Shown piece after piece: positions 12,001 to 18,000 of a stretch of 64,000 bases of DNA. The first letter of the stretch is position 1. Each line of letters begins with the position of its first letter. This DNA is from Coxiellales bacterium (lineage in GTDB: Bacteria > Pseudomonadota > Gammaproteobacteria > CBDETP01): positions 18,792 through 82,791 of the forward strand of contig CBDETP010000003.1 in the NCBI GenBank assembly GCA_965242995.1, given 5' to 3'. The position numbers were made by a program.

Positions 12001-15000
12001 GGTTATTTGTTTTTTGGTTCGCGGCTGATAAAAACGCATGCCTTTTTTATATTGGCCAGATGTGATTCGAACAAAGGCAATGCGATCGCGATGCTTTGGG
12101 TCCATGTTGGCTTGAATTTTAAAAACAAAGCCAGAGAATTTACTTTCTTCGGGTGAAACCTCACGCTGTTTGCTTTTCCTTGGTTGAGGGGGCGGTGCGT
12201 GTTCGGCAAAGTCATTTAATAATTCACGTACACCAAAGTTGTTGATGGCCGAGCCAAAAAAAACCGGCGTTTGTTTTCCAGTTAAATAATCATCTTTATT
12301 GAAAGGGTGGCTGGCGCCTTGAATGAGTTCTAATTCTTCTTTAAATTCCGTGATTTCATCAGGAATTAATTCCAGTAATCTGGGGTTATTTAATCCTTCA
12401 ATACGCTCAATTTCACTGAAGTGAGTTTTTTTGTCTTGAGGGTATAAATATACGGCATCTTCCATTAAGTGATAAATGCCTTTAAATGATTTGCCCATGC
12501 CAATAGGCCAGGTGATTGGAGCGCACTGTATATTAAGCACGGTCTCAATTTCATCGAGTAGCTCAATGGGTTCGCGAGTGTCGCGATCCATTTTATTGAT
12601 AAAAGTCATAATGGGGGTGTCACGCAAGCGACAAACTTCCATTAGTTTAATGGTTCTAGCCTCAACCCCTTTTACGGCATCAATCACCATTAGTGCTGAG
12701 TCTACCGCAGTAAGTGTGCGGTAGGTGTCTTCGGTGAAGTCAGCATGCCCGGGAGTATCTAGCAGATTGATAATTTTATCCTTAAAGGGAAACTGCATGA
12801 CCGAGGTGGTGACAGAGATGCCGCGTTGCTTTTCCATTTCCATCCAGTCGGAGGTTGCGTGACGAGACGCTTTTCGGCCCTTAACGGTGCCTGCCAAAGA
12901 AATAGCGCCACCAAATAAAAGTAATTTTTCTGTTAGTGTAGTCTTACCTGCATCCGGGTGAGAGATGATAGCAAAGGTGCGTCGCTTTTTAATTTGTAGT
13001 TCGAGTGTTGGCATAGTTATCGCTTTAAGTTTGATTTGTGATTAAGAAAAGTGAGCTCGCTCTTCATCACGAAGGGTGAGTATTTCCGCACCATCTTTGG
13101 TGACCACAATAGTGTGTTCCCATTGAGCTGAGAGTTTACGGTCTTTGGTGATAACCGTCCAGTCATCGCCGAGTAAGCGAACATGGCGTTTACCTGCGTT
13201 GATCATCGGCTCAATAGTGAAAGTCATGCCCTCTTTTAGCTCTAGCCCAAGGTCTTTTTGTTCATGATGTAGTACTTGAGGGTCTTCATGAAAGCCTTCG
13301 CCGATACCATGGCCGCAGTATTCACGTACAATTGAAAACCCAGCCTTTTGAGCAAGTTGCTGAATGGCTCTGCCAATATCATTAAGGTGTGCGCCAGGTT
13401 TGACGCAGGCAATGCCGGCGTATAGGCACTCTTGAGTAATCTTGCAAAGCCTCTCAGCTAGCGGGATTGTTTCACCAACAAGGAACATTTTACTGGTATC
13501 ACCATGAAAGCCATCTTTGATGACAGTGACGTCGATATTAACAATGTCGCCATTTTTTAATTTTTTGTCAGCAGGGATGCCGTGGCAAACAACGTGGTTA
13601 ATTGATGTGCAAACGGATTTTGGAAAGCCCCTGTAGTTAAGAGGGGCCGGGATTGCTTGCTGCACCTCAGTGATGTGCTTGTGGCATATTTCATTGATTT
13701 CGCTGGTAGTAATGCCGGCCGTGACGTGTGGGCCAATCATTGTGAGTACTTCGGCGGCGAGCTTACCAGCTATGCGCATTTTTTCAATATCTTGAGGTGA
13801 CTTGATGATTACTGGCATAGCATTGTCCTGTGCGTTGTGATTCTAGGCTAACTATGTTATAAAGCTTTGCAATATTTAGCAATTGAAAGTCTATGATTTT
13901 TGCTCAATATTGTTTTTATTAACGACACACATAGGGTGTTTAGTTGGCTTGGGGTGCTCCTAAATGAGTTCAAGCCATTTGCCCTGTGGAGGTTTAACCC
14001 AAAAGGAGAAAGTTATGAAACCTGTGACTATGCGTCAAATGTTAGAATCTGGTGTGCATTTCGGACATCAAACCCGTTCTTGGAACCCAAAAATGGCACC
14101 TTATATTTTTGGAAGCCGCCAAAAAATCCATATTATCAACCTAGAAAAAACCGTACCGCTTTTCAATGAAGCAATGCAAAAAGTTGCTCAAGTTGCTAAA
14201 GGCCGTGGTAAGGTCTTATTTGTAGGAACTAAGTTTGCGGCGCAAGACGTTGTGCGTGAAGAGGCCACTCGAAGTGGTATGCCTTACGTCAATCATCGCT
14301 GGCTGGGTGGAATGTTAACCAACTATAAAACGATTCGTCAATCGATCAAGCGTCTAAAAGATTTAGATATAATGATGGATACGCCTAAGTATCATGATTT
14401 GATCAAAAAAGAAAAATTAATGTTAATGCGTGAGCGTGAAAAATTAAATGCAACATTGGCCGGTATTAAAGATATGGGCGGTCTGCCAGATATTTTATTT
14501 GTTATTGACGTTAAGCATGAAAATATTGCTATTGCAGAAGCAAAACGACTGGGCATTCCTGTGATTGGCATCGTTGATACAAACTCAGATCCAAGTGTGG
14601 TGGATTATCCTATTCCTGGCAATGATGATGCGTTGAAATCAATTCGTTTGTATTGTCGCACTGTTGCTGAAGTGGTTATCCATTCTCGTGGAGAAATTAA
14701 AGAACCCGCTAAAAAGGCAACAAAAATTGACGTTAAACCTTCAGCCCAGAAAAAAGTAGTGAAAGCTGCTGTTAAAAATCCTGTTACAGAAGCTGTAAAA
14801 GAAGAAAAAACAGAAGCAGTTGGTGCTAAAGTGGTTAGTAAGACAAAAGCAGCCGCTAAAACAAAAACAGCAGTTAAAACAAAAACAGCCGCTAAAACAA
14901 AAACAGCAGTTAAAGCAAAAACAGCAAAAACAGCAGTTAAAGCAAAAACAGCCGCCAAAACAAAAACAGCTGCCAAAACAAAAACAGCTGCTAAGAAAAC

Positions 15001-18000
15001 AGATGAAAAAAAATCTACTGATAGCGATAAATAATTATTAAGAGGATGAGACAATGAAAATAACAGCAAGTCTAGTCAAAGAGCTGAGAGAGCAGACAGG
15101 TGCCGGCATGATGGAGTGCAAAAAGGCACTTGAGAAAGCCAGCGGCAGCATTGAAGAGGCAATTGTCGTTTTGCGTAAAGCCGGTAGTGCAAGAGCTGAT
15201 AAAAAAGCAGGACGTGTTGCAGCTGAAGGTGTGATTGTTTCTGCGATGAGCGATGATGGCCGCCGTGCGGTGTTAGTGGAAATCAACTGCGAGACAGACT
15301 TTGTTGCACGTGATGAAAGTTTAAAATCATTTGCAAATCAAGTTGCTGAAGCTACACTGAAAAGTGGTTCTGAGGATGTTGATGCTATCTTGGCGCAAGA
15401 AAATGAACGTGGCGAAGCATTATCTTTTGTGCGACATGAGTTGGTCAATAAAATTGGTGAAAACATTCGGATTCGTCGCGTAGCCTTTATGGAATCAGCT
15501 AATTCACTGGGTGTTTATCGCCATGGCGATCGTATTGGTGTATTAGTCGCACTAAGCAAGGATAATGCTGAGTTAGCTAAAGATATTGCCATGCATGTTG
15601 CGGCAGTTAATCCTTTAGCAATTGATGAAACAGAGCTTTCGGCTGAACTTCTTCAGCAAGAGCGTGACATTGTAACAACCCAAGCAAAAGAGTCGGGTAA
15701 GCCAGATGCCATTATTGAGAAAATGGTTGAAGGGCGTATGTCAAAATTTGTTGCAGAAAGAACACTGTATGGGCAGGGTTTTGTTAAAAATCCGGACCAA
15801 ACTGTTGCTGACTTGCTGTCGCCATCTGATGCGAAAGTTAATGCCTTTGTTCGCTTTGAAGTGGGCGAGGGTATTGAGAAAGTTGTCACTGACTTTGCTG
15901 AAGAGGTTCGTTCACAAGTTGAAGGATCTTAATAAAAAGTAATCATAGGCGATAGGGAGGATTTAGAAATGACGGATGCTAAAAAACCAGTTTATCGCCG
16001 CATTCTACTAAAAATGAGTGGCCAAGCATTAATGGGTGACTCTTCTATTGCTGTCTCTCCTGATGTTCTTACTCGCATGAGTGAAGAGATTAAGGCAGTG
16101 CATGATCGGGGTGTCCAAGTCGCCTTAGTTGTTGGTGGAGGCAATTTTTTCCGTGGTGAGGCGCTGTCTAAGCTAGGTATTGATCGCATTACTGGCGATC
16201 ATATGGGAATGTTGGCGACACTAATGAACGCATTAGTGCTTCGCGATTCTTTTGAATCTGCGGGTTTGCAAGTAAGAATTATGTCCTCTATTCCTGTCAG
16301 TGGTATGGTTGGGCACTTTAATCAGCGTAAAGCCATTAATCATTTGCAAGAAGGTCGTGTACTGATTTTTGGTGCTGGCACGGGAAATCCTCTAGTAACA
16401 ACCGATACTGCCGCGAGTTTGCGCGGCATAGAAATTGGCGCAGATATTATTTTAAAGGCTACCAATGTTGATGGTATTTACGATAAAGATCCTTCGAAGC
16501 ATGCGGATGCAATTCGCTATCGTCAGGTTGATTATCAAGAAGTTCTGAAAAAAGAATTGGGCGTGATGGATTTGGCGGCATTTTGTCAGTGCAGGGATCA
16601 TCAAATGCCCATTAGAGTTTTTAATATGCATAAACCAGGTGCTTTGCTGCGTGTTATTATGGGTGAGGATGAGGGCACTTTGGTTTCTAAGGAGAAAAAT
16701 AATGATTGATCCAATTATTGATGCTGCAGCTGACCGCATGGTTAAAAGTACCGAGGCTTTTCAAACAGAGTTGGCCAAGCTTAGAACAGGGCGTGCGCAC
16801 CCGAGTTTGTTGTCCCACATAAAAGTCGATTACTACGGCTCACCTACGCCTTTAGATCAAGTGGCTGGGGTGTCAGTTGAGGATGCAAGAACATTGACCG
16901 TGACGCCATGGCAAAAAGATATGTTGGGACCGGTTGAAAAAGCAATCATGACAGCTGATTTAGGACTGAATCCATGCAGTGTTGGTATGGTTATTCGCGT
17001 TCCTTTGCCTGCTTTGACGGAAGAGCGACGACGTGAATTGGTGCGTGTTCTTAATGATATTGCAGAAGGTGCGCGAGTCTCGGTTCGTAATGCTCGTCGT
17101 GATGCCAATCAAAAGTTTAAAAGTCTCACAAAAGAAAAAGAAATTAGTGAGGATGATGAGCGCCAAGGCAACGCACGCATTCAAAAATTAACCGATAAAT
17201 ACGTTGCTGAAGTTGATGCGCTAGCGGCTAAAAAAGAAGAAGACTTAATGGCTGTTTGATAAGGTAAAGGTTTTCTAGCTATGCAAAAAGCACCAAAGCA
17301 TATTGCCATTATTATGGATGGAAATGGCCGATGGGCCAAAAAAAAATTAATGCCGAGAGTCTTTGGGCATAAAGCTGGGGTGAATGCAGTAAAAGCATCA
17401 ATAAGAGCCTGCATTAAGCGGGAAGTTGATATATTAACACTGTTTGCTTTTAGCACGGAAAATAATGCAAGGCCGACCGATGAAGTGCGGTATTTGTTAA
17501 ATCTATTTGTTGAGTCGCTAGATTCTCAGGCTCAAGAGTTGCACCAAAATAATGTTCAGCTAAATATTATTGGCGATTACTCGTTTTTTTCAGCAAAGGC
17601 ACTTAAGAGTATTGAAAAAGCAAAAAAGTTGACTGAAAAAAATTCAGGTTTAATTTTGAATATTGCAATTAACTATAGTGGCCGCTGGGATATTCAGCAA
17701 GCAGTGGTTGCGACACAAAAACACTGTTTAGCAACAGGAGAAATTGACATGGAGGGGTTTGAAGATAGCCTTTGCTTTTCGAGCTGGCCTGATCCAGATT
17801 TATTGATTCGCACCAGTGGTGAAGCTCGCATTAGTAACTTTATGCTATGGAATTTGGCTTATACCGAGCTGTGTTTTCTTGATGTGCTTTGGCCTGATTT
17901 TTCAGAGGAGCACATTAATGAAGCAATTGGTTGGTTTCAATCAAAAGAACGTCGTTATGGTAAAATAGCAGAGCAATTACAGGAAGATAAAAATGCTTAA

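Follow-up and report, generated by a model that had tools for sequence, protein, structure and literature searches.

The window analysed here, a stretch of 64,000 nucleotides of the Coxiellales bacterium contig CBDETP010000003.1 with 40% G+C, contains an rpsB gene (14015-15034, plus strand) encoding a 30S ribosomal protein S2 that is extended at its C-terminus, 339 amino acids (aa) plus stop codon in all. We conclude, with a probability of about three in four, that this is the normal, essential rpsB of a Coxiella-related gammaproteobacterium, in which a canonical S2 core is followed by an inherited, lineage-typical polycationic and disordered tail that has been rebuilt by slippage in its distal part. 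An in-frame tail on S2, rich in Lys, Ala and Thr and encoded by 18-bp tandem repeats, had been described in an earlier note on this sequence. That description holds, as the open reading frame (ORF) runs uninterrupted from the S2 core to the TAA stop codon at 15032-15034, and Tandem Repeats Finder (TRF) detects a period of 18.

The folded core comprises residues 1-226 (14015-14692, plus strand), as delimited by the AlphaFold2 model and by alignments to solved S2 chains. The protein matches Pfam Ribosomal_S2 (PF00318) over residues 9-223 (3.5e-94; 314.5 bits against a cut-off of 26.1; profile positions 1-215 of 216) and NCBIfam rpsB_bact (TIGR01011; 324.9 bits against a cut-off of 76.3). The best solved-structure match is an S2 of the Pseudomonas/E. 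coli type (1e-96, residues 1-225), with top matches ranging from 1e-96 to 1e-89, and the alignments to solved S2 chains all stop at residues 216-243. The AlphaFold2 model was computed from an alignment of the window S2 with 58 relatives (59 sequences; alignment A1). It gives block means of the predicted local distance difference test (pLDDT) of 89-98 for residues 1-220, with 216 residues at a pLDDT of at least 90, long helices at 104-122 and 131-151, and a last core helix at 207-225. Model and solved-chain match agree on the two-domain S2 fold, an alpha/beta globular domain with a coiled-coil hairpin, and the residue at the S1-docking position of E. coli, F32, is retained. The family scores, the fold and the rpsB-tsf context with its leader RNA (described below) place the protein in the uS2 family.

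The tail comprises residues 227-339 (113 aa; 14693-15031, plus strand), as judged from composition and the AlphaFold2 model. It consists of 30% Lys, 22% Ala, 17% Thr and 11% Val, with a net charge of +23 and an isoelectric point (pI) of 10.3; the pI of the repeat part is 11.2. The tail is predicted to be intrinsically disordered, with block-mean pLDDT values of 44-57 beyond residue 240 and no secondary structure past residue 226. An earlier division into a core of about 245 aa and a tail of about 95 aa was right about the in-frame extension but not about the boundary, which lies at about residue 227 (14693). Repeats are confined to residues 276-326 (51 aa), and the ~49 aa that precede them in the tail are free of repeats, with much Lys, Val, Ala and Glu. 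A proximal segment, KKVVKAAVK (residues 246-254; 14750-14776, plus strand), is a degenerate version of the motif [KR][IV][IV]xKK that is discussed below. The non-repeat C-terminal tip (14993-15031, plus strand) had been taken for acidic; read from the sequence, it is of mixed charge with a net charge of +1, and the tips of relatives have net charges from -6 to +7.

The tandem array (14840-14992, plus strand; delimited by TRF and unit segmentation) consists of eight 18-bp units encoding KTKTAA/V and one 9-bp insert encoding TAK. TRF reports 9.2 copies of the 18-bp period (score 151) and a higher-order period of 36 (score 186). The eight repeats of the earlier description are thus present, but not all of them are near-perfect, since the identity between units is 67-100% with a mean of 84%. 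The periodicity of the array is far beyond chance: identity at a lag of 18 is 0.83, versus 0.51 +/- 0.04 in codon shuffles of the array, and the observed value was reached in 0 of 5000 shuffles. Within the array lies a perfect 27-bp tandem duplication in two copies (14898-14951, plus strand; TRF period 27, 2.0 copies, 100% matches). This duplication is the latest expansion event and the origin of the out-of-register KTA insert. The array is A-rich, with an AT skew of 0.6, AAA for 31 of 34 Lys codons and ACA for 18 of 19 Thr codons. With head-to-tail units divisible by three within a coding region, it has the form of an in-frame variable number tandem repeat (VNTR). Other calls over the same DNA were rejected: an antisense ORF with a hydrophobic AVFVLA repeat (14605-15069, minus strand; 154 aa) as a shadow of the repeat, a +1-frame ORF with a QKQ repeat (14820-15041, plus strand; 73 aa) as a frame shadow, and four terminator-like minus-strand hairpins (14852-14992) as repeat artefacts.

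Comparison with orthologues, as the earlier note had proposed, revealed that the extension is widespread in Coxiella-like relatives. When the full-length protein was used as query, the best 120 matches were 289-408 aa long and all had a K/A-rich tail. Because a full-length search picks candidates by shared words, so that the tail could bias the outcome, a search with the core only (residues 1-226) was run, and its best 120 S2 proteins (64-72% identity) form our nearest-relative sample. We defined a long Lys-rich tail as exceeding 35 aa with at least 15% Lys, and a short tail as at most 35 aa. Long Lys-rich tails were found in 100 of these best 120 proteins, with a median length of 82 aa and a maximum of 137 aa. 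The cores nearest to that of the window S2 share 66-72% identity with it. Named long-tailed relatives are Coxiella burnetii, Ca. Coxiella mudrowiae, a Coxiella-like endosymbiont, Coxiella sp. RIFCSPHIGHO2 and Ca. Paracoxiella cheracis, and these named ones all carry the plain annotation 30S ribosomal protein S2. The RpsB of C. burnetii, identified from 2-D gels in an immunoproteomic study, is annotated there at 35.4 kDa (PMC3386016), and this is the long form. The sequence comparisons thereby indicate that a long Lys-rich S2 tail is ordinary for the Coxiella-like lineage.

A broader and less biased sample consisted of 77 complete rpsB genes of assorted, mostly distant Proteobacteria among the matches listed in a genome-contig scan. 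The canonical short acidic ending (...DEFVEV..., at most 35 aa) occurred in 42 of them, long Lys-rich tails in 14 (Marinicella, Woeseiaceae, PS1-clade, Ca. Ruthturnera and others) and long tails of other composition in 21. With such tails in these 14 genes and in 100 of the best 120 relatives, the view that an S2 fusion of this kind is unusual had to be abandoned. The C-terminus of S2 is evidently a hot spot for low-complexity additions, as these samples suggest, and the Lys-rich type recurs among them.

The S2 proteins of the Coxiella group (C. burnetii, Ca. C. mudrowiae, tick endosymbionts and Ca. Paracoxiella cheracis) are encoded by the same gene in the same operon context as the window S2, with cores that are 66-70% identical. 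They carry K-rich extensions of 80-90 aa, which are predicted to be of low complexity and share a proximal motif of the KVVTKKAK type. The window tail differs in being longer (113 aa), more cationic (+23 versus a median of +9) and Thr-rich, with a degenerate copy of the motif. Among the 163 long tails surveyed in the Coxiella-like set (175 relatives retrieved overall), 87 contain [KR][IV][IV]xKK (for example KVVTKK or RIVTKK), against 1.7 expected from shuffles, which is an enrichment of ~50-fold; the motif sits at a median of 22 aa into the tail. Among the matches listed, the 14 Lys-rich tails from other lineages of Proteobacteria all lack it. The shared motif suggests that the extension was inherited and is not a new fusion, and its absence from the Lys-rich tails of other lineages suggests that those are probably convergent. 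The pattern favours a single ancestral extension among Coxiella-like bacteria, with independent origins elsewhere. Like the window S2, the proteins of Marinicella, Woeseiaceae, PS1-clade and Ca. Ruthturnera combine an S2 core with K/A/T/P-rich repeats (KKKTT, AAKKP), but their tails are without the Coxiella-group motif and some have a Rho_N-like end, which the window tail does not.

Relatives with cores that are 95-99% identical have tails that are just 60-85% identical and differ in length by up to 30 aa. Their own DNA tandem repeats use other units, for example 15/30-bp units encoding AAKKP/AAKKA, and no clean KTKTAA/V array like that of the window was seen in the 175 retrieved relatives. 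By their appearance, the tails are low-complexity sequence that arose locally, and the perfect 27-bp duplication in the window implies that repeat turnover is ongoing. We propose that short in-frame units are gained and lost through replication slippage or unequal exchange, so that the distal tail is continually rebuilt; in the window genome, the unit is the 18-bp sequence encoding KTKTAA/V, present in eight copies, with the 27-bp duplication as a very recent event. Selection on the tails was assessed from the ratio of nonsynonymous to synonymous substitution rates (dN/dS) by the Nei-Gojobori method in three independent close pairs of relatives. The values were 0.10, 0.34 and 0.09 for the tails versus 0.006, 0.021 and 0.025 for the cores, with the caveat that the alignment of repeats can bias such estimates. 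These ratios indicate that the relatives' tails are under purifying selection and not neutral. The Lys-rich reading frame of the tails is kept throughout, also in endosymbiont genomes of 1.4-1.7 Mb.

Several points weigh against the reading preferred here. The tail is at most 35 aa in 13 of the best 120 core matches. S2 tails in other lineages are acidic, Arg-rich or Ala/Pro-rich, and this variety suggests that the S2 C-terminus is a permissive site tolerating many kinds of low-complexity sequence. The window copy of the proximal motif is degenerate and fails the strict pattern, and the dN/dS values stem from relatives rather than from the window species, with repeat alignment as a possible source of bias. 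A PDB sequence search retrieved no solved S2 chain with a comparable Lys-rich tail, and our searches found no experiment or structure showing a binding partner of any bacterial S2 Lys-rich tail. The short tails, together with the long tails of quite different composition in 21 of the 77 broader S2 among the matches listed, also agree with the view that the tail is essentially functionless low-complexity sequence, in which a solvent-exposed S2 C-terminus would accept any sequence, and A-rich, slippage-prone DNA of an A+T-rich genome is read as Lys, Thr and Ala while the length drifts without consequence for selection. The same view is favoured by divergence and indels that are far faster in the tails than in the cores, and by the strong A-richness of the array and of its Lys and Thr codons. 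We consider it unlikely, although worth serious attention. Tail dN/dS values of 0.09-0.34 are well under 1 in all three close pairs, and the Lys-rich frame is kept in 100 of the best 120 relatives although the +1 frame is open (Q/K/L-rich). The ~50-fold enrichment of the proximal motif and the persistence of tails in reduced endosymbiont genomes likewise speak against a functionless tail.

As to what an inherited polycationic tail might do, the position of S2 on the ribosome is informative. On the 30S subunit, S2 occupies a solvent-side position between the head and the body and is a late, weak binder. Its contacts are with h26 and h35-h37, it joins late in assembly, and bS1 needs it in order to bind beside the mRNA exit (PMC10931766); S1 docks on the globular domain of S2 via pi-stacking on Phe32 (PMC4288201). 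We tentatively put forward, at slightly less than even odds, that the tail serves as an electrostatic tether for RNA, without sequence specificity, near the mRNA exit/S1 side of the 30S subunit. A disordered chain of 113 residues with a charge of +23 that is anchored on S2 could extend to the platform, to S1, to the 3' end of 16S rRNA and to the mRNA leader as it emerges. Such a tether would firm up the hold of S2 on 16S rRNA, or help to capture or hold mRNA leaders alongside S1, or both, and selection would act on the charge and length of the tail rather than on its exact sequence. A conserved composition combined with labile sequence and length and with dN/dS below 1 fits selection of this kind.

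Circumstantial backing for an RNA tether comes by analogy from chloroplast uS2c of Chlamydomonas and from the Rho_N-like end of a PS1-clade S2 tail. The extension of Chlamydomonas uS2c is, like the window tail, a lineage-specific addition to uS2; it lies near bS1 at the mRNA exit, as part of a protrusion for which a role in stabilising mRNA has been proposed (PMC13481248). It differs from the window tail in being built of folded S1-like barrels plus a coiled coil, in measuring hundreds of residues, and in being N-terminal or inserted. The E. coli S2-S1NTD chimera (PDB 4TOI) was rejected as evidence that the C-terminus of S2 lies near the S1 dock, because the S2-S1 crystal contact forms between symmetry-related molecules (PMC4288201). 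In a bolder version, which we regard as improbable, the S2 tail of Coxiella-like bacteria would be a functional ribosomal element open to tuning, either as a polycationic arm at the mRNA exit that aids or partly replaces S1 in recruiting mRNA leaders, or through charge-driven clustering or silencing of ribosomes in dormant cells. If that were true, changes in repeat number such as the KTKTAA expansion would adjust the reach and charge of the tail between lineages.

The tail had been likened to histone H1 and AlgP, and the likeness is real in composition. Chlamydial-type Hc1/Hc2 (Pfam HC2, PF07382), AlgP and the Burkholderia proteins of hist_H1_lk_Burk (NF038053) have K/A-rich short tandem repeats, are strongly basic and are expected to bind polyanions, as is the window tail. 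An H1/Hc1/AlgP-like module that gives S2 a second job on DNA, the nucleoid or polyphosphate, for example in the compaction of resting Coxiella-like cells, would accord with this composition. It would also accord with the matches of several relatives' tails to HC2 and of two relatives in alignment A1 to hist_H1_lk_Burk, with the association of AlgP (K/A/P-repeat, H1-like) with polyphosphate granules (PMC9239181), and with the moonlighting roles reported for uS2 (PMC10931766). Membership in an H1-like family is nevertheless not borne out. The window tail alone matched nothing above noise in Pfam and NCBIfam, the best E values of 0.12-3.9 belonging to unrelated families (Pfam Not1, 3.9; NCBIfam EntC and EntD, 0.12-0.91), and it matched nothing among PDB sequences (best E ~3). 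The matches of the relatives' tails to H1-like models are compositional and not evidence of homology. The H1-like proteins, moreover, are free-standing and associated with nucleoid or polyphosphate, whereas the module of the window is tethered to a ribosomal protein. S2 is autoregulated in ribosome stoichiometry and its leader RNA is present here, so that most copies should be ribosome-bound, with RNA as the nearest polyanion, and our sequence analysis gave no sign of DNA or polyphosphate binding. A second job of this kind is therefore improbable in our judgement.

Models of long S2 proteins do not capture the window protein either. NF051451 ('30S ribosomal protein S2, sunset domain variant') is matched with 284.6 bits against a cut-off of 710, and the best E among the 59 members of alignment A1, 1.7e-92, also falls far short of that cut-off; literature searches on 'sunset domain' returned nothing relevant. 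NF008966 (PRK12311), a long S2 model of 334 positions, is matched with 319.4 bits against a cut-off of 526, and the aligned profile positions 6-240 cover the core only. For five relatives in alignment A1, the tail is matched by NCBIfam PRK14900 (valine-tRNA ligase) in the Lys/Ala-rich C-terminal part of that model, which suggests that a similar tail is attached to another translation protein in some bacteria. Lys-rich, H1-like tails on ribosomal proteins are also known from mosquito RpS6 and RpL23a, where they evolved independently (cited in PMC11764897). These are eukaryotic and concern other ribosomal proteins, so that the analogy with the window S2 is one of principle, without evolutionary connection.

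The array might also be a contingency-type VNTR, in which in-frame copy changes tune the tail length adaptively or vary an exposed antigen. Its unit is divisible by three and occurs in eight copies, the perfect 27-bp duplication in two copies suggests recent slippage, and tail length differs between near-identical relatives. In addition, RpsB is seroreactive in C. burnetii (PMC3386016) and is reported to be surface-exposed in Rickettsia (PMC6652061). In-frame units cannot, however, switch an essential gene on or off, the average identity of 84% between units would slow slippage, and diversifying selection would hardly be expected to target a ribosomal protein. Conspecific sequences were found neither in the assembly collection, where the 339-aa protein had no exact match, nor by a metagenome scan with tail peptides, whose 600 pattern matches included just one relative locus (42% identity) and none that was conspecific. 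We give this explanation long odds.

That the long ORF is an artefact, caused by an assembly error or frameshift or by a lost stop that fused S2 to a small H1-like gene, is effectively excluded, in spite of the proneness of short tandem repeats to assembly collapse or expansion and the absence of the exact protein from the public assembly collection, by an architecture that is the same in all relatives examined (in 8 of the 8 relatives whose DNA was compared at the rpsB locus, the tail continues the reading frame of the core and tsf follows after 3-40 bp) and by C. burnetii RpsB, which is annotated at 35.4 kDa and was identified from 2-D gels (PMC3386016), so that solely the copy number could be an assembly issue. 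The earlier note had named two outcomes that would undo its proposal, a stop or frameshift ahead of the repeats and a separate repeat gene in relatives; the window ORF is continuous up to its stop codon at 15032-15034, and the rpsB regions of the eight relatives contain no separate tail gene.

The long rpsB is thus a correct gene call, neither frameshift nor fusion, for which plain '30S ribosomal protein S2' is the appropriate annotation. The window S2 joins an already known, functionally unstudied class of long-tailed S2 proteins. Lys-rich disordered S2 tails are common: most Coxiella-like genomes encode one, as do roughly a fifth of the Proteobacteria sampled. Purifying selection acts on them, yet they have apparently never been studied functionally, nor do they have a counterpart in solved ribosome structures; literature searches found no dedicated study of C-terminal Lys-rich extensions of bacterial S2/uS2. 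C. burnetii, whose S2 has such a tail, can be grown axenically.

Some S2 tails encountered in the broader comparison deserve separate description. Four of them contain repeats of differing chemistry: AAEEPK x8 (L051), ADSAGADDAA x4 (L064), a ~16-aa Ala/Pro/Glu-rich unit x3 resembling SAAPEKPAE.EAAPEKPAET (L078) and EKPAKA x4 (L010). These suggest that the S2 C-terminus accumulates repeats of many kinds. The S2 of a Pseudomonadales metagenome-assembled genome (L025) has an extension of 258 aa, in which a long acidic low-complexity linker is followed by a non-repetitive segment of ~80 aa without significant Pfam match; S2 may here be fused to a folded domain that has gone unrecognised. In a PS1-clade alphaproteobacterium (L050) and in Ca. 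Ruthturnera (L052), the Lys-rich tail ends in a helix-extended-helix segment of ~35 aa (...LNSMLKAELVALAKEKGVEIASKDTKADIIAKLG). The L050 version scores 22.9 bits against Pfam Rho_N, just below the cut-off of 24.9, and the L052 version has no Pfam match. Such an end would add to S2 a folded motif that binds nucleic acids.

The start codon of rpsB in the window is almost certainly the ATG at 14015, which we chose because it is preceded by AAGGAG at a distance of 6 nt and because translation from it gives an N-terminus that aligns with residue 1 of homologues. A mechanical ORF list places the start at 13964, giving a call of 356 aa that is too long because this position lies inside the leader. 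The S2 of C. burnetii CbuK_Q154 (P0163, 359 aa) likewise starts ~40 residues ahead of the conserved N-terminus (MLFFHRGPLYGIKARQNTHTYRHMI...), and its start is probably over-extended into the leader in the same way. The 5' leader of rpsB (13908-13998, plus strand), between map and rpsB, matches the full Rfam t44 RNA model (RF00127; model positions 1-95; E 8.3e-07) with 45.9 bits, just over the gathering cut-off of 44. The t44 RNA is the S2 autoregulatory leader. A promoter-like site lies at 13883-13911.

Downstream of rpsB, tsf (15054-15932, plus strand; Pfam EF_TS, 7.8e-70) follows after 19 bp, and pyrH, frr, uppS, cdsA, bamA, skp and lpxD follow on the same strand. The minus-strand neighbours are prfC and map. 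This neighbourhood is the classical gammaproteobacterial rpsB-tsf region, and the order map, rpsB, tsf, pyrH, frr is conserved in the relatives examined. The mechanical ORF of frr (16639-17259, plus strand) begins with GTG at 16639, which gives it an overlap of 71 bases with pyrH. When translated from 16702, it yields a standard ribosome recycling factor of 185 aa with a full-length Pfam match, and the true start of frr is probably near that position.

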